From positions 96,001 to 160,000 of the forward strand of contig JAVJQW010000006.1 of NCBI GenBank assembly GCA_040218735.1: 64,000 bases of DNA. The letters run 5' to 3'. This document shows, one piece after another, positions 1-48,300 of this stretch; position 1 is the stretch's first letter, and each line of letters starts with the position of its first letter. Source of the stretch: Deltaproteobacteria bacterium (GTDB taxonomy: Bacteria > Myxococcota > Kuafuiibacteriia > Kuafuiibacteriales > Kuafuiibacteriaceae). The notes under the pieces are model-generated. The model had not been told where the DNA came from and made no database searches. It saw only the letters and a program-made list of their open reading frames with translations. A program made the translations under genes and the position numbers.

Positions 1-1067
1 ATCACCACGCCGAGGACGTCGGCGGAGCGATTCATGCGGTCGAGGAACGCGCGGAACATCCCGAACGAGCGCGACGCGATCGGCTCGGACTGGAGGACAC
101 CTACGACGTGCGTCGCGGCGCCGATGATCTGTGCGGCGGTCCCGTTCATCCCGGCGGGGGCGTCGATGAGGACGAGGTCGGCGTCCCGGGTGAGCGGGGC
201 GACGAGCTCGCGGAGCTCCTCGGAGGTCGGGGTGCGGAGCATCGCGTCCGCGTCGAGCTCGGCGCCGATCGCGGGGACGATGCGGAGGTTCGACATCCGC
301 GTCTTGATCGCGAGGGCGTTGGGATCGACGAGCTGCCCGACGACGTCGTAGACGCCGCGCTGCGCGCGCTCGCGCGAGGCGACGGCGGAGAGCACGTCAC
401 CGTTCACGTCGCAGTCGACGAGCACGACGCGTTTGCCGCGTTTCGCGAGGCCGATCGCGACGTGCAGCGCGATGGTGGTCTTGCCGCAGCCGCCCTTGGG
501 GCTGACGAACGCGATGACCGGGCACTTCAAAGAAGCGGTGGCCGAGGTCTTGGGGGCGCGCGCGGGTTCGGGCGGTGTCGGGATCGGCGTCGGCTCGAGC
601 GGCCCCGGGCTCGGTGCGGGGCGCGCGGTGGCCGGCGCGCGGAGGTCCGGCGCGCGGAGGTCGGGCATCGGGGTGGTGATTCGTGTCGGCGTGGTGATCG
701 GCGCCGGTGCGGCCTGGATCGGCGCGGCGGCGCCGGCGTTTTCGTACTGGGAAACGAGCTGAGCCGTCAGGCGCGCGATGGGGGTGAGCGGCTCATCGTG
801 AGACTCGAGCCGCTCCACGCGAAACGTCTGCAGGGGTAGGGCAAAGAGGCGCCGGAGGGCGGCGAAGCCCGAGGCGTCGCTGCCGATCAGCTGCACGCCG
901 AGGATCATGCCGGCTTTGAGTGTGACGCAGCCGGAGAGCCCGTTGGGGCCGAACAGCTCGACCGAGAGGAGCTGTCGACTGATCGAGAGCGCCTGGAGGA
1001 CGTCGGCGACCGAGAGGTCTCCGAACTCGCCGCGCACGACCGTCTTTTCAGAAGTCAAATCGACCAT
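1..1067 (-). CDS. DUF4388/PATAN-like domain + Pro-rich linker + ParA/MinD-family ATPase (3' end outside window)
   Basis: Not in the ORF track because it runs off the window. Manual translation from ATG 1067: MVDLTSEKTVVRGEFGDLSVADVLQALSISRQ... (DUF4388-like), then a P/A/T-rich linker, deviant Walker A VIAFVSPKGGCGKTT and Walker B LVLIDAPAG. Confidence 0.8.
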   Translation of the reverse strand, partial: MVDLTSEKTVVRGEFGDLSVADVLQALSISRQLLSVELFGPNGLSGCVTLKAGMILGVQLIGSDASGFAALRRLFALPLQTFRVERLESHDEPLTPIARLTAQLVSQYENAGAAAPIQAAPAPITTPTRITTPMPDLRAPDLRAPATARPAPSPGPLEPTPIPTPPEPARAPKTSATASLKCPVIAFVSPKGGCGKTTIALHVAIGLAKRGKRVVLVDCDVNGDVLSAVASRERAQRGVYDVVGQLVDPNALAIKTRMSNLRIVPAIGAELDADAMLRTPTSEELRELVAPLTRDADLVLIDAPAGMNGTAAQIIGAATHVVGVLQSEPIASRSFGMFRAFLDRMNRSADVLGVV

Positions 1068-1188
1068 TCCGTGGGGTGAGAGTCACCCAAAACCGACCCG
1101 ATGTCATGGTGAGACGTGCGCGTACTCCATTCGTATCCCGAGGCTCGCGAAATGCGGTGAACCCGAGCGCGAGCGCAAGGAGAGGCTT

Positions 1189-1977
1189 TCAGATGGCGGT
1201 GACGAGGCTGCGCTCGATGGCCCCGGCGACGCCGTCCCAGAGGACGAGGCGGGCTTCGAGGGCGCGGACGGCGGCGTCGCTCGCGGCGTTCCAGCGATCG
1301 TCGTCGTCGCCGCAGAGCTCTTCGACGAGCGACAGGGCCATGGGGCCGTGGTGGTCGCCGTCGAGCTCGATGTGGCGCTCGAGGTAGTAGCGCAGCCCGC
1401 CGAGGTGTCCGGGCGCGGCGTCGTCGAGGCGGTCGACGATCTTCTGGAACACGTCGGGCAGCAGGTCCTCGCGACCGAACGTGAACGCGGCGGCGGCTTC
1501 ATGGGGCCGGTCCGCGAGCGCGAACGTCTCACACACGAAGTGCCGCACCGGCAGCGGGGCGCGGGCGGCGTCGAGCGCCGAGCGGAGGGTGTCGCGGCCT
1601 TCGAGGTGTCCGAGGAAGTCGTCGACGGTCTCGGTCGACGCGCCCGCCTGCACCATGGCGCTCTTGTACAGCTCGAAGTGGCTCGCGTAGCCGCCGTCGC
1701 CGTCGGCGTCGCTCTCCTCGCCGAGGACGATCTCGTTGATGAACCGGCAGGCTTTGCGGCTGACCGACGGACGCCACGGTACTTCGGTACAGGTCACGTG
1801 CTGCTGGAGCACTTTGAGGAGGGTCATGAAGTCCCACACGGCGAACACGTGGTGGGCCATGAACAGGTGCATGGCCTCCATGGAGTCCATGCGTTCGTAC
1901 ATCGGGTGCCCGAGCAGGAGCCGACGTATCGGTTCACAACGTTTCTCGATCTGCCGAAGCCGCGCGTTGGTGAGCAT
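1189..1977 (-). CDS. DUF3050 family protein (heme-oxygenase/PqqC-like helical fold)
   Basis: Motifs HVFAVWDFMTLLK, INEIVLGEESD, SHFELY, FTFGREDLLP, YLERHIELDGDHHGP. Confidence 0.85.
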   Translation of the reverse strand: MLTNARLRQIEKRCEPIRRLLLGHPMYERMDSMEAMHLFMAHHVFAVWDFMTLLKVLQQHVTCTEVPWRPSVSRKACRFINEIVLGEESDADGDGGYASHFELYKSAMVQAGASTETVDDFLGHLEGRDTLRSALDAARAPLPVRHFVCETFALADRPHEAAAAFTFGREDLLPDVFQKIVDRLDDAAPGHLGGLRYYLERHIELDGDHHGPMALSLVEELCGDDDDRWNAASDAAVRALEARLVLWDGVAGAIERSLVTAI

Positions 1978-2211
1978 GTTTTTCAGTACAGACGTGTGGA
2001 ATACGAATCGTCGAGGGCCACCTTGACGCAGGCCCCCGTCTTGATCATGCGGCTAACCCACGCGAGCCCACCTGTCACCCGTAGCAGTCGTTGCATTCGT
2101 GACGAGGAGGTTGGCGATGGCGCGCAAGTCAACTTGCGAAAGCGTGTATCAGGCCGGGACGATTTTTTTCGCATTTTGTTGGCACGCGTAGCCGGCGTGC
2201 GGTGCGCGCGC

Positions 2212-3369: not shown

Positions 3370-3522
3370 CAGCGTCGATGATGCGCGGGGACGACGCCCG
3401 CCCGAGTCCGAAAGATCGGGGGTGTGGAGCCAAAGACTACGGCGGAGATGTGCCCCACATAGGGCGCGAAGCGCCGGCAGTTCGGCGCCCGCAGCAAGGG
3501 GAATCGACCACGTACAAGACGA

Positions 3523-3557
3523 AGCCCCCATCGCGCCCGAAGGGCGCGGTGGGGGCT
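3523..3557 (-). terminator. Strong hairpin, probably the original ssrA terminator displaced by the island
   Basis: agcccccatcgcgccc-gaa-gggcgcggtgggggct; on the minus strand a cUUCGg tetraloop followed by UCGUCUUGU; lies just downstream of the duplicated tmRNA 3' end. Confidence 0.65.
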
Positions 3558-3607
3558 GAAGTCGAGTGGCCGACTTCACGGCGGCGCTCAGTGCCGGCGA
3601 AGCCGGG

Positions 3608-3631
3608 AATGGAGCCGGCGGGAATCGAACC
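3608..3631 (-). repeat. att site: displaced copy of the tmRNA 3' end
   Basis: aatggagccggcgggaatcgaacc, identical to 13614-13637. Confidence 0.92.
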
Positions 3632-4175
3632 GGCTCAGGCAAAACCATGAAACAGCTAGGTGGCGCGCGTGCTTGGGGCTCTTTCCGTAACCAAACCCAG
3701 CCGTTGTGTGGTCCCCCTTCCGCCGTCTGGTTCTGATCAATACCTCGAGGTTCCGCGGAGTCTGGGCACCATTTGGGCACACGATCAAAAGTTGGGGGGC
3801 CAACCGTGCCCGAGGGTCAACGGATGACGCGGCGGTCACTGCCGGAGATCCGCCGGGACGCCATCGCGAGGGCTGATCGTCTAGCGTCCATCGTCGCCAC
3901 ACCTCCCGCCCGCGGGCGCGGTGGATCGGAGACATCCCCTGGTCACGTCGTCCTCGCCTGCATCGCCGAATTGGACCAAGCAGGCCCAACCGGGTGTCAC
4001 CGCGGCGCCACAACGTGCACAGTCCGCGGCGCACTATTTCCGTAGCGCAAGTGCTACCGCTGCCGCTTGAGATCCGATAGGAGCGCCCGCCCCCGGCCAG
4101 CACGGAGGAAAGCGGCGACGACGGAGGTGCGCCGAGGCAGAACGCCGACATGCGAGCGGTACGACACAACACGCG

Positions 4176-6422
4176 ATGCTGTCAGTGATGCACAAGAGCG
4201 TCGTTCGCGCTGTTCGGGTAGCGCGCGGATGGTCTCGCGTAATAGATTCATTGAGTGTGAAGACGGTGTCGGCGGCAGCAGCAATGGCCATCTTGTTGGC
4301 CACACACAATGTCCACGGGGCGCCATCCGCGGGGGCGATCGCGGTGTTTCACATCCGCAGTGTCGACACAAGCCGGGTTCCGCGAGCGGCAGTCGAGAAG
4401 CTGTCGAGTGAGCTGTCGGAGAGGCTAGCCGCGGAGGGCGAGGAGGTAGTGCCCGACGCTTCTCTCGGTCGCCTCCTGGAGGACCTTCAACGTAATTCAA
4501 TGTCGGCGTGCTACGACGAGAGCTGCCAGATCGAAATAGGGAGGGGGGTGGCGGCTCAGCAGGTTCTCCAGACGCGGATAGTTCAGTACGGAACCAGCGA
4601 ATGCGTCCTGACATCAGTTCTATTCGACCTAAGAACTGAGACAAGTGACTGGAGCTATTCACGCGCCCTCCCGTGTCGTTGGTCGGCCATCAGAGAGGCG
4701 GTTCTGGATATACCCCATCAACTAGTCGCAGGACGCAAGCGTAGGAAGAAGCAAGCGACGACGATAGCGGTCCTACCTCCGAAAGTTGGCGATAAGTCGC
4801 TGGCGCCTCCAATCTTTGTCGAGAGTTTCGCCCACTACTTCGCGATTCTTCTTGCGGAGACTGAGCAGTTTCGCGTTGTCCCTCCTTCGGCAGTGCTCAA
4901 GGTACTTCGCGAAAGGAAACTCGATTCCTACAGCGCGAGATACGACGAGACGAGCCAGGTAGCGGTGGGGGGCGCCCTCCCAGCCGAGGCTGTCGTCTCA
5001 TCGTCGATCGTCAAGAACGGTGACGTCTGCTCCGTCTCGGCAACGTTCTTTGACACGAGCCGGATATCAAGTACACGTGCTGTATCGACAAGGTCCTCTT
5101 GCCGCCCCTATGCTATTGCGCGCTCTTTCACGAGAATCGCGGAGGAGGTTGCCGGTCGACCTCTCGGGTCGCACGTTGAGAAGAGACGTCCTATCCGCTT
5201 CAACTCCATCCCACCCGGCGCCAGGGTCGTTCTCGATGGGGAGCCTGCGTGTTCGTCGACACCTTGCGTGCGCGACCTCGAAGAACGAGTGTACACGGCC
5301 GAATTCCTGCTCGATGACCACGTCCCGCGGCGGCGGGAGTTCGCTGTCGACGACGTGCGAGAGGTAACCGTCGAACTGAACTCGCGTTACGGATACTTGA
5401 CCTTCCTCGGCGGTGGTGGAGCAGGAGTCGCGATAGATGGAACTACGGTCGGCACTTCCCCGATCAGTAATCATAAGGTGAGACCGGGCACGCATGAGTT
5501 CAAAATTGTTGGGGACTGCTTCGAAGATGCCGCCAGTTCCGTTCACGCTGAGGCCGGTGAACATGTCGTTGTTCGACTGGAAACCTTCCGCCGGACGGTC
5601 AAGGTAAATCTAGTGGTTACAGACTCGCGAACGAAGGTGCCATTGTCGGGGGCGAGCCTCACTGCCGATGGACGGCGTATTCGCTTTGTTGACGGTACAG
5701 CGCATCTCCCGGCTTGCACCAAACGGATAGATGTCGAGAGGCGAGGTTATCGATCGAGGCAGATCGAGTTCGGCTCCGCCCTCACGTTCAACGAACAGGT
5801 CGTAGCTCCGCTCGAGGCGAAAGACTGGGTTGAGGCTAACTCTAAGTGGCTTCTTCGAGAAGAGGAGATGAACCTTGTTGAGTCTCAAATTCATCGGTAC
5901 TACTCCAGAGATATCGAGGTCTATGGAGTCCGTTGCCGAGCCAGGGGGGCTGTCGAGTGTGCTGTGTTTAATGGCGAAGAGCTTTTTATGGGATGTGTCT
6001 TGGCGCGAGACGCCGCCATGGATAGCCCAATGGGCGTGACCCACTGCAGTGCTGGGGGTACAGTCTACTTTGGCGACAATGTTGGTAGTCGTCGCGGGTT
6101 CAGGGCATGTTTGCTGTCACGGAACCAAAGGTATACGCCAGCCGGGACCCGTCGCGTGTCGATTCCATGCGCAAAGGGCGGTCTCGTGAAAATATCCAAT
6201 GACGGGCACCTCGTCGGATGTCGGCTTGAACAGAATCTAACGATCGACCGGGTTCATGCGCGCGCGATGGACTGGGTCCGATTTCACGATGAGGGCCAGT
6301 TTTGGTTCCTGAAGATTCCCGAGGCGCGATTGATACAAGGTCGCTTCTGCGAGGCTAGAGCAACTGTCTATTTCGAGGAGGACGGGAGGATCCGCGACTG
6401 CCAGGTGGAGTACGTCGACTAG
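4176..6422 (+). CDS. PEGA-domain protein: 2 alpha/beta N-terminal repeats + PEGA repeats + Cys-containing beta repeats
   Basis: PEGA motifs (FNSIPPGARVVLDG, GVAIDGTTVGTSPI..VRPGTHEF); duplicated IAV..C/YDE.CQ.. domain; start uncertain (could be as late as ATG 4284). Confidence 0.7.
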   Translation: MLSVMHKSVVRAVRVARGWSRVIDSLSVKTVSAAAAMAILLATHNVHGAPSAGAIAVFHIRSVDTSRVPRAAVEKLSSELSERLAAEGEEVVPDASLGRLLEDLQRNSMSACYDESCQIEIGRGVAAQQVLQTRIVQYGTSECVLTSVLFDLRTETSDWSYSRALPCRWSAIREAVLDIPHQLVAGRKRRKKQATTIAVLPPKVGDKSLAPPIFVESFAHYFAILLAETEQFRVVPPSAVLKVLRERKLDSYSARYDETSQVAVGGALPAEAVVSSSIVKNGDVCSVSATFFDTSRISSTRAVSTRSSCRPYAIARSFTRIAEEVAGRPLGSHVEKRRPIRFNSIPPGARVVLDGEPACSSTPCVRDLEERVYTAEFLLDDHVPRRREFAVDDVREVTVELNSRYGYLTFLGGGGAGVAIDGTTVGTSPISNHKVRPGTHEFKIVGDCFEDAASSVHAEAGEHVVVRLETFRRTVKVNLVVTDSRTKVPLSGASLTADGRRIRFVDGTAHLPACTKRIDVERRGYRSRQIEFGSALTFNEQVVAPLEAKDWVEANSKWLLREEEMNLVESQIHRYYSRDIEVYGVRCRARGAVECAVFNGEELFMGCVLARDAAMDSPMGVTHCSAGGTVYFGDNVGSRRGFRACLLSRNQRYTPAGTRRVSIPCAKGGLVKISNDGHLVGCRLEQNLTIDRVHARAMDWVRFHDEGQFWFLKIPEARLIQGRFCEARATVYFEEDGRIRDCQVEYVD

Positions 6423-6565
6423 CCTAGCCTAGAAAACTAACCTAATCCTAGTCCGGCCGAGCCTCAATGCCGATCTCTTAGCGATAGAACCTCGAAATCG
6501 TTAGCTCCTCGGCGCCGTCACGCGGCGCGCTCGAAGCGATATCGAAGCGAAGGACGACCATCTAT

Positions 6566-9500
6566 TTATAGAACGTCGACGCGGAATACGAGTTCGCCTT
6601 TCGTCGTCCTATCGCTTGTCTCCTGACGACGTAGCGCTCGCCTTACCCATGTATAGACGATGATATTTAGTCCATACCGAACCCGCAGTTCATCCGCCAA
6701 GGTCCGATGAATCGATGTCCGAACGCCACTTCCGAGGCTCTGTTCCTCGTAGAGGCCGACGGCTCTACCGCCCTCCCAGTATCGCGTCCGAGTAAGTGGC
6801 GTGCCGTTTCGGACCATTGTGAAGGAACCGTCTGATCGCCATTCAAGTCCAAGTTGTCGCATCCAGAAACCAGGCACGACGGCAATGGCGTTCTCGTCGA
6901 GCAATGCGAGGCTCCCCCGGTGAAGCGCGAGCAGCGGGACCTCGGCGGCTCCTTTGAGTTCCACTGCCGGCGGAATCGCTTCAGCGATGACCCGAACTTC
7001 TTCGGCCGAGTAGCTTCCCTCTTCAAGGGTTCCGATGCGAAGCAGATTTCGATGAACGATACGCGCCAAATCGTCTTGACTAGCGTTCTCAACTCGATCC
7101 GACGCCGCCAATGCAGCGAACCTCCCAACGTCGTAGCCTGCTCCCTTCGTTGACGAGATGAAACATCGATCGAAGACAGGAGTCCACTCCGGCTTCCTCC
7201 GAACGATGAGGGCATCCGGAACGGCCCTGAGCTCGCACCAGGCCGCTTCCGACGCCCTCGATTCGGGCCCAGAAAGGTCAAGTGCGCGGAGATCCCCGGG
7301 CGGACGGGTGGCTGGACACCAGGATGTCCACCAGTCGCGCGAACGAAGCAACCGCATGACCTCCTGCCTTCGATTGTTCGGACACAGCTCTTCCGCAACG
7401 GCGTTGAGGCCCTCGCGAAATGCCGCCGAGGATGCCGGCTCAAACGGTATCCATGCATAGTTCATACCCTGCGGGTGAATGCTACTACGCCGAAGGGCCT
7501 CGTCTTCCTCGCGCAGGGTCCCCACACTAATCCCCTGGATCTCCAAGTACCGCTCCACTCGCCATAGAAGTTCATCTCCACCGATTGATAGGCAGGCGGC
7601 TAGATGCGGCACGATGTCGGTGACTCGTACAAGACTCTGATCACGAATATCACGCATGAACTCTCGAGACGGACGTATGCCAGGCGGGAGAGATACCCTT
7701 CCCGAAATCCTGTCGTTCCGCGGTATGGCGCGCTCAGGCAGCAGCTCATCGATCAGCTCCCGTCCCTCGAAGTGAGTCCAGCGGTCCATCAAAGCCCGAA
7801 GACACGGCGCAGACGACGCGTCAAATACTCCGCAAGTTCTCCAGGCCGTGAGTACGTATAAAGCCTCGGTCTTGACCCATTGCGGCGAGTCTCCACAGGC
7901 AACCGACACCACAAACGGCACCCAAGTCGCCGGATCGATCCCTCCGACAACTATCATGCGCCTCAGCAGCGACCGTCGCCGACGCAACTCGCGGATCTCA
8001 GTCCATCGCGTGCGAATCATGTCCAAGCCAACCGACCAGAATGATTCTTCAAAGTGGTCCCTGAACGCACTCTCGTACGATGGTAGGTCAAGTTCAAGAT
8101 GACTAAACCTCGCCAATACGTGCGTCCGCAGACCATCGTAGATCCGTTGCAGTACGGAGTGTCGGTCGGCCTCGAACCTATCGAGACAACGCATGAGAAG
8201 GAGATCCGCGCCGTGGGCCCGCCCGTACTGCGTAAGATGTCTCCGCACAGAAGCGAGTGCAACCAAGAGCGGTCGCGATCGATCACTTCGATGGGACGCG
8301 TCTAGGTATTGAATATTCTTATCCCAGATTCCCCAGCCATACGCCGTCTCGAAAGCCCTCTCGAAGTAGTTCAAGCAGAGCTCAGCCTCCCCGACGCTCT
8401 GATATGCGCTTGCAATCGCCGCGTAGCTCTCTGCCTCTCTCGCGACGCCAATGAACTCAACATCAACGATGCGGTCAACGTCGGCTCGGACCGTAGCCAT
8501 ACTAAGGAGATGCCGCGCAGCCGCACCAATTGACTCTTGGTAAGCGAAGTCAACGCCCGTACGCCGCGCCCTCGCTACGAATGCCCCGAATGCGTCAACG
8601 CTATCCCCAATCAAGCGCTCCACATCCTCCGGCCGAATCGGCTTGCCATCCGAACCCGTGAGCAGCCTATCGTCCCCGACCGAACGATCCGCCGTCCCCG
8701 GATTCACCACTGGGCTGACGCTAGCGGGTATGGCCGCAACGCCCAGCCGTCTCGCGATATCGTTGAAATCGGGCGCAAACTGGGCTGTCGTCTTGGGATC
8801 TACCTCGCAACGCAAGAATCGCTCAACATCAGCAGCGAGAGGTATCGAATGGGGCGAACCACCTTGGACCATAGAACCAAGGACTCGAAGAAGCGTACGC
8901 GCCTTCGGCTCAAAGCCGTCGATATCAGCGCAGTCGTCCATCAGATGAGTTAGCACGTAGGCTACGAGAGGATCCCACGCGTCCAGCTCATGAAGATAGA
9001 TAGAAATGCAATCGTCCACTTTCCACGCGCCTACCGTTCCCTCCAGCAAGCGGAGAAACGGAAGGGCGCGAGTAGGTCGCGATTCAACGACTCGACGAAA
9101 TAGGGCCTGCGCGAAGTGCTGCGTGCCTTTTCCGTCGGTCACAGCCTCCATAGCAGCTGCGCAAGACGCCATCTGGGCCCAGCCCTTCTCATCAAAGAAC
9201 GAATGCTTAGCCGCGAACTCGGAAGCATCAATCAATAGATCCAGCGTGCCGTCCTTCCTGTGACCATAACCACCACTGGAGAGAACTGCATCTCGGAGAC
9301 AATCACGTGCGACCTTCTTCCATCCGCAGCGCCCCGCTACAGTACCGAGTCTGAGGAAGTGGGATGTCCGAGTCGCAGTCTCTTGAGTCTCCTTGGCAAT
9401 CTTGTCCCTGAGTCTATCGAACGTCGGCTCCATTGCGGAGCGAAGGCCCGGGAAGCGACCCATCACCTCTAGCAGTAGGAGCTCAAGCCGGTAGTCAACT

Positions 9501-12500
9501 ACCACGTCACCAATCCCGTAGTGCGTATTGGCGATATCAGATCTGGAGAAGACTTCGAGGGCCACGCTGACGCGCTCTGCTGAGACTTGGTGGTGCAGCA
9601 GAAACTGCAGGAGCCCCGAAAGCCACGTCGCCAGGTCGGCGCGAATCTCGCTAAACTTCTCGAATATTCGCGCCTCGTCGCCACGGGGTTGCTCCGAAAG
9701 CCGGGCGAGAAGGGCAAGCCCAGAGCGCTCAGGGGTCTCGCAGGGCGCCGGATATCGAGTAGCCAGCAGCATCAGGTCCATGTTCAGTTTGTAATAGAAG
9801 CTCAACCAGCCAGGAGTGAGACTCAGTCGGCTCGCAACAGCCTTGAGTTCGTCACCCCTCTCCAAGTAGACCAGGATCCGAACGTAGTCCCGGAAATGAG
9901 CAAAGGCCTCGCGTGTCATTCCATAGAACACCTGCTCCTCAAGATTCGGGTAGACCAGATTTCCAAGGAGCGTAGCTGCCGCTGCACGCCCAAGGTCGAA
10001 GCGTGCTACAAGCGCGCCCACCATGAGCCGATCACAGGATTCACGCGCTGCTCCGACAGCCTCCCGTACCGCCCAGGTGGCGCCCGGGAGGTTGAGATCC
10101 GCCTGTACAGAGGCCATCTCTAGGGTCCAGTAGGCGCGAATCTCGCCGGCGGGATCCGTTCGCTCAAGCAATCTCCGAAGTACTCGAAGTGACGCCGAAT
10201 GCCCAAATGACGCCCAGCCTCGAATGGCGACTCGCAACAGCTCTCGACCAGGATCTCCGCGAGGCTGCGTGTTTCCGAGGTTCGCGTCAACGATGTTGAG
10301 GACCCAGATTGGGCTAACAACATCGTAGATGCAGCCAATCCGTACACACTCACTTAGATCGTCGCGAGAGGTGGATTGTGAACCACGAATGGCGGCCTGA
10401 ATCGTATTCAAGGCAACGGTACGACAGCTTTCCAGATGGCCAGAACGGGCTAACGTCGCCAACGTGCTCCACGACGCAAGGGGCACCTCACCGCGCGCTA
10501 CGGCAGCGAGCACGCGCTCAGCCTCTGTCTCGCCCTCACCGGCCGCTTCAATACAGGCATCGAGTTCCGCAACATCAATCTCGTATTCGAGTCGAACACT
10601 CGCATCAGTCATACAGCGCGCGCAGTCAGCTGCAAGCACGACGTCATTCACTATGACCGACCGATCAAATGCCAAGAGCAACGAAGCCTGGGTTTCCTCA
10701 AGCGGCCGGCCGGAAGTAATGGCCTGCTCGACATACTGACGCGCGACGTACTCACGAATGAGGTCGTCGCGATGGGCGCTCACCGCATACCCCATTGCAT
10801 GTGCGAACCAGTCCTTCGTCCATCGGTGTTTGTCGAGGTGTTGAAGAATTTGGTCGTCGACGGACCTAATCTGCTCCTCGCTGAGCCGGGCTTCCACAAA
10901 GAGTCGGAAGCTGTTGTGGAATATGCGCATCGCTGCATTACCCCCGGACAGGAGGTGGCGCACGCGTTGCAACACCGCTTCGGACGCGAACGCATCCGCG
11001 TTGAGGAGTGCGCAAAAGTCCGACTCGGGCAACGTAAAGCTCAGCCTCGCCAAGAGAGCGCAAGCTCGTTTGGTGATTTGGTCAGTGGAGCTATGCGACC
11101 ACAGCCATGAGTAGTAGCTGGTGATGTCGCCGCTATATGGCGGAAGCGCGTGCAGGAGCGTACGCAGCTCGCACGGTTCGTGATTTCGCACGTATTCCGC
11201 GGCATAGTGCACGTACAGCGGCAGTCCCTCGGTGATGCGTTGAAGGAGAGCGCGGTTCTCCGGCCCCCCTAACGCAACGCCCGACGCGCGCTCGAAGCAG
11301 CGTGACGATTCTTGCTCGGAGAACGGGGGAATTCGAACAATTCCGTCGCGGAGCTGCTCTTGGAGATATGGCGCGAGAAACGACGTGTCTTGAGTCCCCA
11401 GAACAGACACAGCGGTGAGCGGGAGAACGCGGGAAAGGAACGAGGTGAACTTATCTTGACCAGGAAGTTGCGCCCTCTCGGCGTGATCTAAGCCGTCGAC
11501 AATTATGAGCAGCTTTCTGCCTGCCGCGGTCAACGCATCGGAAAGTTCGCATAGGAGCTGCCCCAGTCGCTCCACAGAATAGTCGTAGCGCCGCCCGGTT
11601 TGAATAAGATCGCCGTACTTCGTCCAGACTTGCTCGCTCAGTCCCCGAACAAATGACTCGACACCTGCTCTTCTTGACTGCTCTGGGTCGAGCATTGACA
11701 CGTAGGCGTAGTACCTCAAGACGGTAAACCGACCATAGCCGTCAAGTTCGTCGCCGAGCCGCGAGAGCAAGGTCGACTTGCCAGAACCTGGAGGCCCGAC
11801 GACTGCCAGAAGACGGGCGCCTTCGGCTTCAATGCGGTCATGAAGGCTCTCTAGCAGCCCTCCTCGATTGATGTGCGTTCTTCGATCAACCGGGAAGACC
11901 TGGGGCAAGGTTGAACGATCCAACTGCAGCGCTCGAAGTAGTTCCTGTCGAGTGATGGGGGTCGACGCCCGCTCATGAAATCGTCGTTCTATGAATTGTA
12001 CGTAGCGGTTTACGACGGACGGATCAGAAATACCCAACTTCGAGTCGAGGTCCGCGACGAGCTGCCCGCGCAGGCCATCTGATGAGGGTCGCCGAAGGTT
12101 GAACCGAAGAGACTCAAGAAAGAGGGCAAACTCAGGATCGTCGGGGCTACCGCAAGCAGCGGCGAGCTTAGCACGACGGCGCTTGTGCCCCTTTTGGCCT
12201 TCGATGACGCCCAGCGCTACTCGGTCATTGTTGAGAATTCGGGCGAGGTCGGTATCCGCAGATCGGTTCGTATACACGTGGACAATGATGTCCGTCCTCC
12301 TCGACCTTAGGCGTCTCCATCCGTCGAACAGGTCCCTAATGGAGACTATGCTCTCTCGGGGCGACGGTGACGTACCGAGAAGCTGCTCGTACGTGTAGAC
12401 CCCATGGGGATCTGCGGAATGTTTGGCTTGGAACGCTTCGAGCAAGCTTCGTCGCTCGACAATAATATCGTCAACCGGGGCGGCTTCCCGATGCTCGTGA

Positions 12501-12619
12501 TAGACAGCGACGACATCTTCGTCGGTCAACAGCCGTAGCGCCTGCAGTTCGAGCAGCCGCTGTTCGTATGCGTCACCCCAGCGCCTTGCGGCGCTGAACT
12601 TCGTTGCTGGACCGAGCAT
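6566..12619 (-). CDS. PD-(D/E)xK-type nuclease + STAND/NACHT ATPase + long helical sensor; AVAST/Avs-like anti-phage protein
   Basis: N-terminal VDDIIV...FQAKHS motif, Walker A GPPGSGKST (~11771-11797), Walker B LIIVDGLDH (~11482-11509), EGLPLY motif, 2017 aa. Confidence 0.8.
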   Translation of the reverse strand: MLGPATKFSAARRWGDAYEQRLLELQALRLLTDEDVVAVYHEHREAAPVDDIIVERRSLLEAFQAKHSADPHGVYTYEQLLGTSPSPRESIVSIRDLFDGWRRLRSRRTDIIVHVYTNRSADTDLARILNNDRVALGVIEGQKGHKRRRAKLAAACGSPDDPEFALFLESLRFNLRRPSSDGLRGQLVADLDSKLGISDPSVVNRYVQFIERRFHERASTPITRQELLRALQLDRSTLPQVFPVDRRTHINRGGLLESLHDRIEAEGARLLAVVGPPGSGKSTLLSRLGDELDGYGRFTVLRYYAYVSMLDPEQSRRAGVESFVRGLSEQVWTKYGDLIQTGRRYDYSVERLGQLLCELSDALTAAGRKLLIIVDGLDHAERAQLPGQDKFTSFLSRVLPLTAVSVLGTQDTSFLAPYLQEQLRDGIVRIPPFSEQESSRCFERASGVALGGPENRALLQRITEGLPLYVHYAAEYVRNHEPCELRTLLHALPPYSGDITSYYSWLWSHSSTDQITKRACALLARLSFTLPESDFCALLNADAFASEAVLQRVRHLLSGGNAAMRIFHNSFRLFVEARLSEEQIRSVDDQILQHLDKHRWTKDWFAHAMGYAVSAHRDDLIREYVARQYVEQAITSGRPLEETQASLLLAFDRSVIVNDVVLAADCARCMTDASVRLEYEIDVAELDACIEAAGEGETEAERVLAAVARGEVPLASWSTLATLARSGHLESCRTVALNTIQAAIRGSQSTSRDDLSECVRIGCIYDVVSPIWVLNIVDANLGNTQPRGDPGRELLRVAIRGWASFGHSASLRVLRRLLERTDPAGEIRAYWTLEMASVQADLNLPGATWAVREAVGAARESCDRLMVGALVARFDLGRAAAATLLGNLVYPNLEEQVFYGMTREAFAHFRDYVRILVYLERGDELKAVASRLSLTPGWLSFYYKLNMDLMLLATRYPAPCETPERSGLALLARLSEQPRGDEARIFEKFSEIRADLATWLSGLLQFLLHHQVSAERVSVALEVFSRSDIANTHYGIGDVVVDYRLELLLLEVMGRFPGLRSAMEPTFDRLRDKIAKETQETATRTSHFLRLGTVAGRCGWKKVARDCLRDAVLSSGGYGHRKDGTLDLLIDASEFAAKHSFFDEKGWAQMASCAAAMEAVTDGKGTQHFAQALFRRVVESRPTRALPFLRLLEGTVGAWKVDDCISIYLHELDAWDPLVAYVLTHLMDDCADIDGFEPKARTLLRVLGSMVQGGSPHSIPLAADVERFLRCEVDPKTTAQFAPDFNDIARRLGVAAIPASVSPVVNPGTADRSVGDDRLLTGSDGKPIRPEDVERLIGDSVDAFGAFVARARRTGVDFAYQESIGAAARHLLSMATVRADVDRIVDVEFIGVAREAESYAAIASAYQSVGEAELCLNYFERAFETAYGWGIWDKNIQYLDASHRSDRSRPLLVALASVRRHLTQYGRAHGADLLLMRCLDRFEADRHSVLQRIYDGLRTHVLARFSHLELDLPSYESAFRDHFEESFWSVGLDMIRTRWTEIRELRRRRSLLRRMIVVGGIDPATWVPFVVSVACGDSPQWVKTEALYVLTAWRTCGVFDASSAPCLRALMDRWTHFEGRELIDELLPERAIPRNDRISGRVSLPPGIRPSREFMRDIRDQSLVRVTDIVPHLAACLSIGGDELLWRVERYLEIQGISVGTLREEDEALRRSSIHPQGMNYAWIPFEPASSAAFREGLNAVAEELCPNNRRQEVMRLLRSRDWWTSWCPATRPPGDLRALDLSGPESRASEAAWCELRAVPDALIVRRKPEWTPVFDRCFISSTKGAGYDVGRFAALAASDRVENASQDDLARIVHRNLLRIGTLEEGSYSAEEVRVIAEAIPPAVELKGAAEVPLLALHRGSLALLDENAIAVVPGFWMRQLGLEWRSDGSFTMVRNGTPLTRTRYWEGGRAVGLYEEQSLGSGVRTSIHRTLADELRVRYGLNIIVYTWVRRALRRQETSDRTTKGELVFRVDVL

Positions 12620-12742
12620 CGTCGTCGCGACGCCGGATTCGGGTGGCCGAACGAGAGTCTGGACCTCGGTCGACTTGTTCCAACGAGCCCGAGAAGCAAC
12701 GTCGAGAATAACGCCCGACGAGGAGGGGCCGCAACCTCAGGC

Positions 12743-13601
12743 TTGGTAGAATTTGTGCGCTCGCGCTCCTTCGTGGCCCTCGGCGGACGCTTGGCCGCGG
12801 GCCGCTTTGCTCGGTCCCACAAAGCCTCGAAGCTCCGCAGTCCGCGCAACCCGGACGGCCTGTCGCAGAAGACCGTGAACAATCGCCTGACCGTGCTCCG
12901 AAAGGCGCCCGATCTGGCGTGCGACTACGGGCTCATCGACCACGTGCCACGCCTCAAGTGGCTGCGCGTTCCGAAGCAGAAGTTCGACTTCCTCGACTTC
13001 GATGAAGCCGAACGTCTCCTCAAGGCAGCCGAGGAGGTCGAGCCGTTCTGGTTCGCGATGATCTTCACCGCGATTCGGACGGGGATGCGTCAGGGCGAAT
13101 TGCTGGCCTTGGAGTGGGATGACGTGGACTTGGTGGCCGGGCGGATCATGGTGCGGCAGTCGCATTGGCGGGGGCACACGGACACGCCGAAGAGTGGACG
13201 TGAACGTGAGATCCCGCTGGGCGACGATCTGCGCCAGGTGCTGCGCGACCATCGACACCTACGCCGCCGGCTGGTGTTCTGCGGCGAAGGTGGCGAGCAG
13301 CAGAACGAGAACCACTGTCGGCGACCGCTGTATCGGTCGGCGGCGAAAGCAGGCTTGCGCCGGATCGGCTGGCACGTTCTTCGGCACACCTTCGCCTCGC
13401 ACTTGGTGATGCGCGGCGTCGCGTTGAAGGCCGTGCAGGAACTCCTGGGACACAGCACGGATCGAGATGACGATGCGCTATGCGCATCTGTCGCCCGACG
13501 TGCGGCTCGATGCAGTCCGACGATTGGGCAAAGCGACCAAGCAGCCAGAGGGCAGAATTTGGGCACCAGGAAGTCCCACCGGTTCTAACCGGCCGAAATA
13601 G
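12743..13601 (+). pseudogene. Tyrosine recombinase/phage integrase, 5'-truncated and frameshifted
   Basis: Motifs RTGMRQGELLAL, PKSGRER, HVLRHTFAS, LLGHST; an extra G at 13459-13460 puts IEMTMRYAHL (catalytic Tyr codon 13479-13481) out of frame; restored stop TAG 13599-13601. Confidence 0.85.
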
Positions 13602-13613
13602 TTAGAAAAAGTA

Positions 13614-13637
13614 AATGGAGCCGGCGGGAATCGAACC
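13614..13637 (-). repeat. att site overlapping the intact tmRNA 3' end
   Basis: Identical to 3608-3631. Confidence 0.92.
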
Positions 13638-13991
13638 CGCGTCCGAGAGTGCTCCCCCATGGAGCCCTACGTGCGTAGCCTCGTGATTCTTTCTCGCAGC
13701 GTCGTAGGATCACGGACAGCCCTCGACGTCGCCAGCCTCGGTTTGTTTCGCCCCCTCGGCGCCGAGGCGCCACCGGGGAGCTAGCTCACTTTGTTTTCGC
13801 CACGATGGGAGCCATGAGCGGGGCTACCCACCGTAACGGCTTAGTCAGACCCTATCGGGTAGATTAAGCAACAGCAGCGGCGACGAAGTCGTCGTTGGCA
13901 GTTAAAGGTTCCGTACCGTTTTTACCGGCGAGCACGGTTGCCGGACACGCGTTCCATGGATCGACACCCCCGTCGAAACCAGGTCGGCCCC
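13616..13991 (-). ncRNA. ssrA: tmRNA, one-piece, tag (A)ANDDFVAAAVA
   Basis: 5' GGGGCCGACCTGGTTTCGAC; 3' GGTTCGATTCCCGCCGGCTCCA with a G3:U acceptor pair; tag reading frame 13899-13864 ending in TAA. Confidence 0.96.
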
Positions 13992-42372: not shown

Positions 42373-45300
42373 GTGCGAGTCGCGGCCGGAACGCTCGCGC
42401 TGGTGCTGCTGTCGTGCGGCGGCGTCGACATCCCGCGCCCGACCATCCCGGAGGCGGAGCTCGAAGGGCTGCGTACCGGCACCCTCGTCGCGTTCACGCC
42501 GGAAGACGATCTGCTGCCGAGTGTCTCGTCCGACGGGCGCTACGTCCTGTTCGCGAGTGAGCAGAACGGAAACCTCGACGTCTGGGTGCGCGACTTCGGA
42601 CGCCACTCGACGTACCCCATCACCAAGGAGAGCTCCGCGGACGACTTCGATCCGAAGATCTCCCCCGACGGTCGCCGCATGGCGTTCGTGACGCGACGCC
42701 TCGACGCGAAGGGCGACATCTTCATCTCCGACTCCAACGACGAGAGCGACCTCGAGCGCATCACCGACGAACGCACGCACGACCGTCAGCCCGCGTGGGC
42801 GCCGAACGGCGAGACGATTTACTTCACGGCCGCGCTCGGTATCGCGCGGGAACACATCGCGAAGGTCGACATCGATTCGAAGAAGGTCGACCGTGTGTCA
42901 CCGGGGCCCGGCTTCGATCCCGCCGTGTCGCCGGACGGGCGCTACCTCGTCTACACCCAGCCCGAGCGTCATCCGCGGTTGGTCGCGCTCGAGCTGGCGT
43001 CGGGGTCGACCGTCGCGCTCACGATCGGGGAGGCGCCGGAGGGGTTCGCGGCGTTCGTTCCGCCGTCGGCGCTCGAGGAGGGGGTGAAGGCCGGGTTGCT
43101 CTACGTTCGGTTCCCGGACGACGACAACGGTGACGGCATCCTCGACGCCGCGGACCACGGGAGCATCTGGCGCATCGACGTGGACCTGCCCGCGTTGTTC
43201 GCGGGTGGGTCGGACGCGGTGTCGCGCCCGCGTCCTCTGACGGACGGGAGCGACGACGAGCTGTTCCCCAACGCGGGTGACGGGTGGCTCTACGTTACGC
43301 GCGGCTCGGTGCAGCAGGACATCGTGCGCTTCCCGATCGACGGGATGTTCCCGCCGTACGAGGACCCGGCCCAGTACCTCGCGCTCGCGAAGACGGTCGA
43401 GGACCCGCGCACACGTTGGTTCGTGTACCGGCTCGCGGAGGCGCGCACGGACGACACCCTCCTCGGCGCGCAGATCGCGCTGAACATCGCGAACCTCCAC
43501 CTCGCGGCTTCGCGCGACGACCTCGCGCGGCCCGCGTTCGAACGGGTCTTCGTGTACACGCGCCGCGCGACGGCCGACACCCCGCGCGCACAGCTCGCGG
43601 GGCTCGCGCGGACGGAGCTCGCGGCGATCGAACACCGGCGCCGGGTCGCGGCGGGAGACGATCTCACGAACGTCATCGAGCGCACCGAGAAGACGCTGCT
43701 GAAGATCCGCGCGGACTGCGCGTGGTCCGAGCGCGTCGTCGCGCGTGTGAACCTCGAGCTCGCGGAGCTCCTCGTGGCGCGCGGTCATCGGGTGCTCGCG
43801 ATCGAGGCGTTCGATCGTGTGATCGCGGAGCACCCCGAGCAGACCTACTCGGCGGCGCGGGCGGCGCTGCGGCGCATCGAGCTGCTGCAGATCGCCCACG
43901 ACCCACCGGCGATCGGCGAGGCCTACCGGCGGGTGTTGGAGCAGTGGCCGGACCAGGTGGAGATCGTGAACGAGGCGTCGAGGCGCATCGTCGCTGCGCA
44001 CCTGGAGGACCTCGTGGTCGGCGACGACTGGAAGGATCAAGTCGACGCGCTGAGGCGAATCATCCCGAGGTTCGGCGCTTCGCCGGTACGTCGCGAAGCG
44101 CGCTGGCAGTTGGCCCGTCTCCTCGAGGAGCACGGCGCGCTCGACTCGGCCGCGCTCGAGTATCGCCAGATCGTCGCCGCCGCGAAGAAGGACCGACTCT
44201 CGGGCGCGCGGGGGATGGTGCGGCTCCACACGATCAACGAGCGCCGCGGCGCGCGAGACGAGGCGTCGCGCGGGTGGCGCGAGCTGCGGAGTCGGTTCAG
44301 CGATCTCCCCGGGTACGGCGCGCTCGCGCGCGAGGCGATCACCCGCGTGGATCTGGAGCGCGCGCAGGCGGAGGAAGAAGACGACAACCTCACGGCCGCG
44401 CTCGCCGCTTACAAGAACGTGATCGACAACGACCTCACGCAGGTGAAGGCGCACCGGCGTTACCTCGCGCTGTCGGCGCAGGTCGGTCGGATCGACGAGG
44501 CGCTCGCGGAGGCCAAGGCGCGCGCGGAGGCGTCCGCCGGGACCCCGATCGCGAGGTACGCCTACGGGCTCGCGCTGACGTGGGCGGACCCGCCGAAGCT
44601 CGACGACGCGTGGGACGAGATCGCGGAGGCGATTCGCCTGAACCCGCAGCTCCCGAACGCGTACGTCACGCGCGGGTGGATCCGCGAGCGGCGGGAGCGG
44701 TCGCCCTCGACGATCAAGGTGATCATCCGCGAGGTCACGCAGCGGATCGGACAGATGGTCGGCGGGTTCCTCGACGTGGAGATCGGTCAGCAGGGGGAGC
44801 TCGAGCTCGCGCTGGAGGACTACAAGACGGCGCTCCGCCTCAACCCGGAGTCGACGGCGCCGGAGGCGGAGGCGGAGATCCTCCTCAACCTCGGCAACGC
44901 ACACTACCTGCTCGCGGAGACGACACAGGACGTCGCGAACATGCGGCTCGCGTTCGACCGGTACGTCGAGATGTGGCGCCTCGGGTACGCGTTCTACGAG
45001 CCGATCGTCGAGGCGATCTTCTGGGAGCGCTTCGGGCGCAGCGCGATCTGGGCGGACGAGCCGGCGCTCTCCGCGATGGCCACGCGGCGGGCGATCCAGT
45101 TCGCGAAGAAACACGATCTCGATTCGCGGCTCGCGCAGCTGTACGGCAACCTCGCGCTGGCCTACGCGAACGCCGGCGAAGACGCCTACGCCGAGGCGGC
45201 GCTCGCCGAGTTCGACAGCGCGCTGACCAAGCGCAAGATCGAGGAGCGCGTCATCATCGCCGTGCGCAACCGGGCGCGGTCGCGGCTCGCTACGATCGAG

Positions 45301-48300
45301 GCGCGCTCGACCGAGTCCCTCGACGAGGTGCTGCGCGCGCTGCGGAAGTCGCGGCACCTCCTCGCGAAGGAGAAGAGCACTGGGCGACAGACGCCGGATC
45401 TGTGGCGCGGCGCGATCGCGAACTACACGAGCGCGCAGTACGGGTTCCGAGCGGAGGGGGAGCTCGACCTCAACCTCGCCCTCGCCGAGATCACCCACCA
45501 GGCGCACGGGGAGACCTCGCGCGTGCGTGCGCTGCGTGAGGCGCGCCTCGACGTCACGTCGCACATCCTCGAGACGATCCCCACGAAGCTGATGATCGAT
45601 ACGGAGCCCGTCGCGCTCACGCAGGCGCGGGAGCGCATCGGTCTGGTGGCGAGTCGAGCGCGCGCCCTCTTGGAGCGCGGGGACCCGGAGGCGATCACGG
45701 CCTACGACGCGGCGCTCGCGGAGGTGGATCGGTGGTACGAGGACGGTCGCCTCGCGCTGGACCGCCCGGCGCTCGCAGTGGATCGCGGGCGGGTGCTCGC
45801 GGCGCGGGTCGAGGCGAAGCTTCGGTTGGGGTTGCCGATCGCGGACGAGGCCGCGGGGCTCGAGGCGGCGCGGACGAAGATCCTGGAGGACCTCTCGGGC
45901 ACGGCGAGCGCGACGACCGGCGCGTTGCTCCTGACGAGCGAGCTGCTCGAAACACTCCCGAGCGCGCTGACCTCGACGGGCGCGTTGGCGCAGACCTCTT
46001 CGATCGCGATGCACGCGCCGCTCCTCGGCCGCGCGTTCCTCGACGCGCGCGCCGTGCGCGCGCGGTTGTCGCACGCGCTCGGGCTGGTGCAGGTCGACGC
46101 CGTTCACCGCGGGCTCCGCGGCGCGGCGGATCTCGACGGCGCGCTCGCGAGCCTCGACGCGGCGTCGCGCGAGGGGATGCGGGCGGCGCACGAACGCTTC
46201 GACCTCGCGGCGCGGGAAGCCGCCGGAGCGGGGCCCGGGCTCGGCGGGACGGTCGTCGTCGCGGCCCTCACGGCGCTCGCCCGGACCGCGCGAGCTCAAC
46301 CCGACCAGCGGGTGATGTCGGCGGCGTTCGCCGCCGAGGCTCAGGCGATCGCAAAACGGATCGGGCGGCCGGATCTCGAGGCGGGGGTGTTGCTCACGGA
46401 CGCGTGGACGCGGACCGCGACGCACGCGCGCACGATCGATACGCAGCTTCGCGCGCGCGGACCGCACGTCTACCTGAACGCGCGCGACGCCTACGAGCGT
46501 CTGCTGGAGCGGGTCGTCGGGCTCGCGGTCGCGCAGTCCAAGACCAACGCGGCCTTCGCGGCGGTGGATCGGATGCTCCTCGTGCACACGGCCTCCGGCG
46601 TGGGCGTGCAGCTGTCGAACGCGACGTCGTCGAGCGATCGCGCCGCGTCGACGCGATACCGTCGGTTCCTAGACCGCCTCACCCAGCTCCGGGGGGAGCT
46701 CGCCTCGACGGATCTGACGACGTCGGTCGACGACCACGCAGCGCTCCTCTCGCGCATCAACGACACGATGGAGGCGCTCGCCGAATTCGAGGAGCTCGCG
46801 GTCGCGGACTACTCCGAGGCCGGTTACCTGCGCACGTTCCGGTTGCCGCAGGACCCGGACTTCGTCGCGGCGGACCTCACGCCGCGCCAGATCGTCATCG
46901 CGCCGTTTTCACTCGAAGGCCGCGTGCACCTCGCGCTCGTCGACGGGTCAACGACGGCGCCGCAGCTGGCGATCACGCCGACGGACGTCGCGTTCGAGGA
47001 CGCGAAGGCCGCGCTTGCTGCGCTGCGGGTGGGGCTGCAGAGCGGGTACGCCGACTCGGCTTCGGTCGAGGTGCTCCAGGCCGCGCTGGTCACGCCGATC
47101 GCGGCGCGCCTGAAGAACAAACGGCACGTCGTGTTTGCGTCGGCGCTCCTCGGCGGCCCGATCCCGGGCGTGGTGTTGCCGAAGGCGGCGCTGACGCACG
47201 TGAGCGCGCCCTCCGCGCTGGCGCAGGCGGCGTTGGCGCAGGTGGTCGGCGTCGAGGGGCAGATCGTCGTGGCGACGGACCCTGGGGCTCCGCTCGTCGA
47301 CGGGCGTGTCCTCGACCCGAGACAGACCGCCGCGTTCCGCGCGACGAAGAACAAGGAAGATCTTCAGCTCGGGGCGCAGCGCTCGCTCGACGAGCGCTCC
47401 GCCGTCGAGCGGCTCGCGGCGCGGGCGGTCGACGCGGTCGTCGTCGATGCACCGGTGATCCTCGAACCGAACGCGCCGGAGCGAGCGGCGCTCTCCGTCG
47501 GAACCGCGACCTCCGCCGATGGCGACTACGGGACCCCGATCGCGGACCGCTTCTCCGAGGAGGTCCCGCTCACGGAGCTGGATCTCCCGTCGCGGGTGCT
47601 GGTGCTCGGACGGGTGACGGAACGCGACCTCGGGGGCGCGGCGTACCCCGCGGATGCGTTGCTGAGCCTGGACCTGACGCTGGCCATGAACGGCCACGCG
47701 ACCACGCTGATCGTGCCGGAGCGTGTGCCCCGGCCGGTGGCGCGGCGGGTGGTGCAGCGGTTCCTCGATCGCGCGAAGACCCAGTCGTACGCGTACGCGC
47801 TCGCGGCGACGTTGCGTGAGGAGCGTGCGTCGGCGCCGCAGGTCGATCTGATCGCGCTGGTCGGTGCGCCGGGCCTCGATGCCCAGGGCCAGCGCGCCTA
47901 CGCGAAGAGGAACGTCACGAAGGCGCGCCGGTACGCGATCGATCGCCTGAAGAACAAACGCTACGAGGAGGTCGTCCCGGCGCTCGAACGCTGGATCCGG
48001 CTGCAGTTCTCCGCGCGCGCGCCCAAGTACGTGAAGTCGGCGTACCTCGCGTTGGTCGGTGTGTTGAGCGAGACCCTCGAAGAACACGCGCGCGCCGCGG
48101 ACGCGATGGAGCAGCTCGTCGAGTTCATGGCGAGCAAGAAGGGCGGCAAGAAGGAGCGCCGGCAGGTCGCGGACGCGCGCGTCGACCTCGCGTACCTCTA
48201 CTCGCGCGCGCACGACTACGTGAAGGCCGAGCAGACCTTCGCCGGTGCGATCGAAGAGCTGGAGGCGCTGGGGCAGCGGGACGGCGTCGCGCGTGCGTGG

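Follow-up and report, generated by a model that had tools for sequence, protein, structure and literature searches.

Introduction

Antiviral STAND (Avs) proteins have an N-terminal effector, a central STAND NTPase and a large C-terminal sensor, and the same general architecture is found in P0001, the protein described here. It is coded on the minus strand of a 64,000-nt stretch of a Deltaproteobacteria bacterium of the phylum Myxococcota (assembly GCA_040218735.1, contig JAVJQW010000006.1, positions 96,001 to 160,000), and this whole stretch is called the window. Among the described systems, the large terminase of phages is sensed by Avs1-3, and Avs1 and Avs3 resemble each other in structure (PMC13601566). 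When terminase binds to it, SeAvs3 of Salmonella enterica forms a tetramer, whereupon its nuclease degrades double-stranded DNA (dsDNA), and the C-terminal domain of Avs2 and Avs3 binds the terminase ATPase (PMC13601566). The long tetratricopeptide repeat (TPR) region of SeAvs3 has two cavities, for the ATPase domain and for the nuclease domain of terminase; the terminase-bound ATP is touched via Y1714 and the H1770 loop, and in Avs2 an extra ATP replaces a loop of Avs3 (bioRxiv 10.64898/2026.08.25.746987). SeAvs7 is an autoinhibited monomer that becomes a Cap4 tetramer upon activation (PMC13581612). A survey published in 2026 counts 589 clades of STAND proteins, of which 198 are associated with defence, and groups the sensors in 684 clusters (PMC13581612).

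The system closest to P0001 is SeAvs3, solved with the large terminase of phage PhiV-1 (PDB 8DGC). Its chain of 2028 residues, numbered to 2072, is nearly of the same size as the 2017 amino acids (aa) of P0001, as an initial annotation made from the letters of the window had pointed out. Both proteins are products of a single gene and have the same order of Cap4-type nuclease, STAND NTPase, long helical sensor and C-terminal domain. SeAvs3 is the best structural match for both halves of P0001 and is collinear with it from end to end, with 11-17% identity in the structural alignments, while phmmer and family profiles recognise no similarity between the two. P0001 is likely to be an antiviral STAND receptor that consists of one gene product and belongs by structure to the Avs1/Avs3 class, and the large terminase of phages is its probable trigger. 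A role as a defence nuclease of the Avs type is very probable; the large terminase as its trigger is proposed by analogy and with modest confidence.

Reading frame and conserved motifs

The open reading frame (ORF) of P0001 has 0 internal stops over its length and occurs as a single copy in the genome. The initial annotation had described it as a stand-alone nuclease-STAND ORF, and this description holds, as the frame is real and the protein is of the Avs kind. Every motif listed there is present and is conserved in relatives. In the nuclease these are G15..Y18-E19, V49-D50-D51-I-I-V and F63-Q64-A65-K66-H67; in the NTPase, Walker A G275-PPGSGKST (K281), Walker B LLIIVD375GLD378H and G465-LPLY; in the sensor, G1117-YGHRKD and T1161-DGKGT. 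When five full-length sequences with 25-28% identity were aligned, D51, E55 and Q64-A65-K66-H67 were invariant in the nuclease, together with the P-loop GxPGSGKST, the Walker B element VDGxDH (D375/D378/H379) and EGLPLY in the NTPase, and GYGxRKD (1117-1123) and TDGKG (1161-1165) in the sensor. When the alignment is widened to 31 and to 37 rows, D51, Q64, K281, D375 and D378 still do not vary, and K66, K1122 and D1123 hardly do.

Domains of P0001

The protein was folded with family alignments as two halves (AlphaFold/AF2). The model of residues 1-817 has a predicted local distance difference test (pLDDT) score of 84.3 and a predicted template modelling (pTM) score of 0.71, and the model of residues 818-2017 has pLDDT 83.1 and pTM 0.77. 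A decaying gene carried as an inactive passenger on a decaying island would agree with the frameshifted integrase of the island and with the terminal branch of P0001, which is the longest in its clade except for P0014. A search of sequencing runs gave four DNA entries from two studies and no RNA entry. The 6-kb frame is intact, the catalytic, nucleotide-binding and family-invariant sensor residues are all kept and the models are confident throughout, so such a passenger is highly improbable.

The N-terminal domain is a nuclease of the Cap4/DUF4297 type. Its residues 13-234 superpose in VIA on the nuclease domain of Enterobacter cloacae Cap4 (7yib; Z 17.4, root-mean-square deviation (rmsd) 3.2 Å, 208 residues aligned), and the domain also superposes on LmuA, on the HerA-associated DUF4297 domain and on HamA. 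By sequence, the PADLOC models of Cap4-type CBASS effectors (SAVED_PDDEXK) match the N-terminus at 3e-8, and a family profile of 37 rows matches solved Cap4 (7yib_A) at E 3.7e-6, with YQxKH of the family aligned on YQIKFH of Cap4. The fold and the D...(E/Q)xK active site are thus both present in P0001, the latter as D51, Q64 and K66, which are conserved. Pfam PF14130 is absent among the Pfam matches of P0001 at E<=1; it is reached by the relative P0046 (27.2 versus a cut-off of 26.2), and precomputed PF14130 matches exist for several other relatives. A missing nuclease fold had been named in the initial annotation as a reason to give up the defence role, and the Cap4 nuclease fold was found by sequence models, family profile and VIA alike. 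Fold and D...QxK motif are shared with Cap4 (CBASS effector; PDB 7YIB, 6VM6), LmuA and HamA. In Cap4, however, a SAVED domain activates the nuclease upon binding of a cyclic oligonucleotide, whereas the nuclease of P0001 forms one chain with a STAND NTPase and a protein sensor.

The second domain is a STAND NTPase. Pfam NACHT (PF05729) matches aa 269-444 with 36.6 bits, above the gathering score of 26.7, and AAA_16 and NPHP3_N match this domain as well. Over model residues 238-680, the STAND NOD is similar to MalT, NRC1 and Apaf-1 at Z 18-19 in VIA. The best solved match to the whole N-terminal half is SeAvs3 in the terminase complex (8dgc_A, Foldseek E 8.6e-19), and VIA aligns 612 residues, model 4..681 corresponding to chain 2..699.

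The third part is a long helical-repeat sensor, followed by a C-terminal alpha/beta domain. The C-terminal ~1400 aa had been described as helical, and this is correct to about residue 1811; the last ~200 residues (~1812-2017) are alpha/beta. The best solved match to the C-terminal half is again 8dgc_A, with Foldseek E 3.9e-13 and TMq 0.49, while the runner-up has E 1.7e-4 and TMq 0.11. In an independent VIA comparison of all against representatives, 8dgc_A has Z 15.1 and rmsd 6.2 Å with 878 residues aligned (model 6..1200 to chain 842..2072), and the runner-up has Z 10.2 at rmsd 21 Å. Helical repeats can attain Z of ~14 by chance in VIA, and the sensor match to 8dgc is trusted because of its margin over the other rows, its coverage of 878 residues and its extension into the C-terminal domain, which is not helical and falls within the collinear alignment to the C-terminus of SeAvs3. 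Searched in the ESM Atlas, the sensor half gave a best score of 0.83, inside the noise stated for the tool.

Typing by sequence and by structure

Avs1b is the sole Avs model that matches P0001 by sequence. It is of similar length (1924-1931 positions), and the match covers the NTPase and the proximal helices, while the N-terminal ~200 and C-terminal ~1200-1400 positions of the model are unmatched. The PADLOC model PDLC02159 matches at 1.1e-27 over positions 198-530 of 1924, in the NTPase region only. The NCBIfam model NF041810 reaches 74.4 bits, versus a curated cut-off of 1500, over positions 205-532 of 1931 only. The partial match recurs in 23 of 24 relatives scanned (8/9, 4/4 and 11/11 in three sets) and extends up to model position ~730. 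Searched in genomes, NF041810 was over its cut-off in none of 151 genomes of the phylum and none of 14 control genomes, with a score of 78 bits for P0001, and the Avs1b model found nothing in the 150 other genomes of the phylum. The N-terminus of Avs1b is a protease according to its NCBIfam name ('AVAST type 1 anti-phage system protease Avs1b'), whereas that of P0001 is a Cap4 nuclease, and unlike in Avs1, neighbours of the Avs1a or Avs1c type are not found beside P0001. The comparison with Avs models that had been suggested in the initial annotation was carried out with PADLOC and NCBIfam, and no full-length high-scoring Avs match was obtained, only that to the NTPase of Avs1b. A search of PDB sequences with the distant relatives P0157 and P0161 gave no match to 8dgc.

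Several results weigh against the placement of P0001 beside SeAvs3 and against its role in defence. At E<=1, none of the PADLOC models that match P0001 bears the name Avs3 or Avs4, and PADLOC presumably contains models of both. The 8dgc chain is absent from PDB-sequence searches with P0001 (phmmer) and with family profile A1, and for profile A3 it is absent among the best 60 of 136 matches at E<=10. The link to Avs3 comes from predicted structure, where scores can be inflated by helical repeats, and the strongly conserved motifs GYGxRKD and TDGKG have no role that could be mapped onto SeAvs3. As for the genomic surroundings, no other recognised defence gene was found among the 36 other ORFs of the window (one match was of desaturase type) nor on the island, and recognised defence genes adjoin only two of the four scanned loci of relatives, eight loci having been returned.

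As sequence methods assign no type and the predicted structure matches SeAvs3, P0001 is filed in the Avs1/Avs3 class by structure and in neither of the families defined by hidden Markov models (HMMs). Two features of the SeAvs3 family are seen in it, the Cap4-type nuclease effector and, in the predicted model, a sensor fold like that of SeAvs3. The lack of a type assignment at sequence level agrees with the literature. The initial annotation had left the sensor untyped, and it is true that no HMM library assigns a type; however, the predicted sensor is collinear with SeAvs3 to the C-terminus, and nothing else is comparable. Likewise, the proposed untyped Avs clade is of the Avs kind, but according to the predicted models P0001 is probably a divergent branch of the Avs1/Avs3 class and not a new type.

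Putative trigger and mechanism

The initial annotation had proposed an unknown phage trigger. Since the sensor is collinear with SeAvs3 and the sensors of Avs1 and Avs3 read terminase, the large terminase is the best guess. By analogy with SeAvs3, SeAvs7 and EcAvs2, P0001 would be an autoinhibited monomer in the uninfected cell. During infection, its sensor would clamp a phage protein that is conserved, for which the ATP-bound large terminase subunit is the most probable candidate. The NTPase would then drive tetramerisation, and the tetramer would unite four Cap4 domains and switch on non-specific dsDNA cleavage, so that the infected cell would die or stall ahead of phage release.

Conservation in the sensor is highest in a stretch at aa 1081-1170 that holds GYGxRKD and TDGKG, and in the conservation profile K1122 reaches 3.9 bits and D1123 4.1 bits. 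The stretch is covered by most matches of the representative-sequence search with the sensor half. The invariant charged loops might plausibly probe an immutable feature of the trigger. An Avs-type nuclease could also read something other than the large terminase, either another conserved phage protein or a protein with a nucleotide ligand at the GYGxRKD/TDGKG loops. These motifs surpass the rest of the sensor in conservation and are left without an explanation, the identity of the sensor to any relative is <=28%, and the branch of P0001 is long (1.5 changes per site). Similar repeat scaffolds read many phage proteins, as in Avs7-21, and the capsid protein is read by three sensors that do not resemble each other (PMC13581612); in addition, Avs2 has an extra ATP where Avs3 has a loop (bioRxiv 10.64898/2026.08.25.746987). 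On the other hand, the whole length of the sensor matches SeAvs3 with the C-terminal domain included, and that domain binds the terminase ATPase in Avs2 and Avs3 (PMC13601566). No other solved Avs sensor is comparable; Avs4 (8dgf) matches the N-terminal half only, at E 2e-7 in Foldseek. A trigger other than the large terminase is therefore rather unlikely. It is also doubtful that the superfamily of ~2030-aa proteins to which P0001 belongs is an unnamed Avs family in which the loops at 1117-1165 form a ligand- or active-site-probing pocket undescribed in SeAvs3, so that trigger or recognition mode differs from Avs3. Such a pocket might hold a bridging nucleotide or insert into the catalytic site of a phage enzyme.

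SeAvs7, which senses the major capsid protein with EF-Tu, shares Cap4, STAND and a TPR-like sensor with P0001 (PMC13581612). Chain 9n00_A, an 'AAA family ATPase' of ~1520 residues whose identity with SeAvs7 is an unconfirmed guess, was matched by the family profile at the N-terminus only (E 0.07). No Avs7 entry was found among the structural matches in the fold library, which reaches to April 2026 and may not hold those structures.

The genome of the host contains a prophage-like block (G000 contig C45, 69000-88900; L018) with repressor, replication initiator, RecT-like and RecE-like genes. The block continues with a divergent large terminase (P0167/P0168) and then with co-directional genes without PHROG match. 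Natural triggers of the terminase kind therefore exist for this host. A complex of sensor residues 1318-2017, i.e., without the first ~700 residues of the sensor, with the ATPase domain of P0168 (residues 1-262, without the nuclease domain) and ATP was modelled without controls and scored 0.00 against a mark of 0.32, which counts neither in favour of binding nor against it.

Relatives and their loci

A word-indexed search with the whole of P0001, in which 8000 candidates were scored, gave ten matches, among them four full-length relatives. With residues 818-2017, phmmer found among 1.84 billion representatives 46 proteins at E<=0.001, of which 34 were at <=1e-10 and 13 at <=1e-30; nearly all are of ~2000 aa or are fragments. 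When the NTPase alone was searched, 800 proteins among 8000 scored candidates had E<=1e-8, and the best 120 were nearly all 2017-2047 aa long. From this search, 96 full-length relatives (>=1850 aa), none of them used in building the module HMMs, were taken as independent test proteins. The HMMs of nuclease, mid-sensor and C-terminal domain all match 93 of them, and that of the C-terminal domain matches 94. The nuclease effector is present in 123 of 125 full-length proteins, with P0011, which has an NNH5 domain, and P0014 as exceptions. A second subfamily, which includes the proteins of loci L002 and L004, aligns as homologous along 1877 columns in hhalign, with a probability of 100 and E 3e-67.

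In a quick tree of 130 rows, computed from proteins of >=1850 aa with a NOD segment of >250 aa plus four ORFs from the loci, P0001 is in a clade of 17 rows (SH-aLRT 91). As its branch is long, with 1.5 changes per site, it cannot be placed exactly within the tree. The superfamily of ~2030-aa proteins spans phyla in a patchy way, and the gene of P0001 was found in none of 40 related genomes, nor with the Avs1b model in any of the 150 others sampled from the phylum. Source labels of the members are 'AAA family ATPase', 'NACHT domain-containing protein' and similar only. The superfamily is probably of the Avs1/Avs3 class, and it may already figure in the catalogue of the 2026 STAND survey (PMC13581612).

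Eight loci of relatives were returned, and the four with an ORF of ~2000 aa (L002, L004, L007 and L008) were scanned. In L004, the full-length homologue comes immediately after a complete type I restriction-modification operon, and its gene overlaps the end of hsdR. The homologue in L007 follows an HNH gene and a gene of a helix-turn-helix peptidase like PD-Lambda-2_B, and that in L002 is located between RadC and an ISL3 transposase; no neighbour gene was recognised in L008. The two kinds of association looked for in an Avs gene are both seen, with a mobile island at the locus of P0001 itself and with defence genes at two of the four scanned loci.

STAND-regulated nucleases could also serve in defence against plasmids or mobile elements, in addiction to the island or in programmed cell death. 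STAND clades with and without a role in defence are intermingled (PMC13581612), P0001 has no other defence gene in the window, and no member of the superfamily is named Avs by sequence sources or was found with a tested function. Against a role other than antiphage are the Cap4-type nuclease, which is a defence-type effector in the classification of PMC13581612, the end-to-end likeness to a proven antiphage receptor, the position of two relatives next to restriction-modification, HNH or PD-Lambda-2-like genes, and a distribution that is patchy and tied to islands, as is typical of genes for defence. Such a role is improbable.

In locus L006 (9869-14703) of a Thermodesulfobacteriota metagenome-assembled genome, the homologous region is divided between neighbouring ORFs of 846 and 765 aa, and this may be a split or frameshifted relative.

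Genomic island at the tmRNA gene

P0001 was acquired on an island of ~10 kb integrated at the transfer-messenger RNA (tmRNA) gene. The G+C content between ~4 and ~14 kb is 0.57-0.61, versus ~0.70 around it, and the G+C content at third codon positions (GC3) is 0.63 for P0001 and the PEGA gene, versus ~0.9 for host genes. In a genome of the same genus (G001), the match to window 3500-3634 continues directly into the tmRNA gene. The site is empty there, so the island in the window represents an insertion. Coordinates of the island and of its parts are given in Table 1.

Table 1. Features of P0001 and of its genomic island, in window coordinates
Feature	Position	Strand	Basis
P0001, whole gene	6566..12619	minus	2017-aa ORF; Cap4-type nuclease, STAND NTPase and sensor predicted to be Avs3-like
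Cap4/DUF4297-type PD-(D/E)xK nuclease domain, aa ~9-235	11915..12595	minus	D51, Q64-x-K66; PADLOC, family profile, VIA
STAND NTPase module (NBD-HD-WHD), aa ~238-620	10760..11908	minus	Walker A K281, Walker B D375; NACHT, AAA_16, NPHP3_N
Helical-repeat (TPR-like) sensor, aa ~621-1811	7187..10759	minus	AF2 models, Foldseek, VIA
Most conserved stretch of sensor, aa 1081-1170	9110..9379	minus	GYGxRKD 1117-1123 and TDGKG 1161-1165; conservation profile
C-terminal alpha/beta domain, aa ~1812-2017	6569..7186	minus	DSSP of model; conserved W1948, G1951, G1965
Genomic island, ~10 kb, at 3' end of tmRNA gene	3635..13614		G+C content, 27-nt flanking repeat, empty site in G001
Distal repeat of tmRNA 3' end (att-like)	3608..3634		26/27 identical to 13614-13640
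tmRNA (ssrA), integration target	13616..13991	minus	ARAGORN; 3' end holds proximal repeat copy 13614-13640
Tyrosine-recombinase (integrase) pseudogene	12743..13588	plus	Pfam Phage_integrase 1.1e-27, profile 2-158 of 172
PEGA-domain protein, 748 aa, hydrophobic N-terminus, other cargo of island	4176..6422	plus	Pfam PEGA 2e-13

The integrase gene abuts the tmRNA gene and is frameshifted; in three-frame translation, the segment with the catalytic Tyr is in another frame and the N-terminal part is short. The initial annotation was right that no small partner gene is adjacent to P0001: its neighbours are the PEGA-domain protein and the integrase pseudogene, and the neighbours differ in the loci of all four relatives examined. 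The PEGA-domain protein was considered as a partner of P0001 and rejected, as it has no PADLOC match and no counterpart beside the four relatives. A scan for promoters and terminators on the island gave counts at or below the shuffled expectation.

Beside the tmRNA gene of G001 (L012 1138-1525), there are three tandem copies of ~120 bp of a stretch that ends in the repeat of the tmRNA 3' end (compare window 3500-3634), and these look like stacked att remnants of earlier integrations. In a genome of another genus of the same family (G006, L013 2236-2768), a related integrase with 70% DNA identity to window 12981-13517 adjoins the tmRNA gene. As an integrase is located beside tmRNA there too, integration at ssrA is a recurrent event in this group.

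Elsewhere in the window, an ORF of 2790 aa is coded on the plus strand at 42373-50745. It has a host-like GC3 of 0.92 and no PADLOC match.

Conclusions

P0001 adds a divergent member to a known Avs kind and reveals no new principle. It is a well-delimited natural example of a putative NLR-like antiviral receptor, consisting of one gene on a 10-kb tmRNA island of a large, G+C-rich genome, and a sister genome shows the site of this island unoccupied. The annotation of defence systems gains a superfamily of ~2030-aa Cap4-STAND proteins which has been labelled only generically and is probably of the Avs1/Avs3 class. The conserved motifs in the middle of the sensor represent a concrete target of mutagenesis for how such sensors read their triggers.

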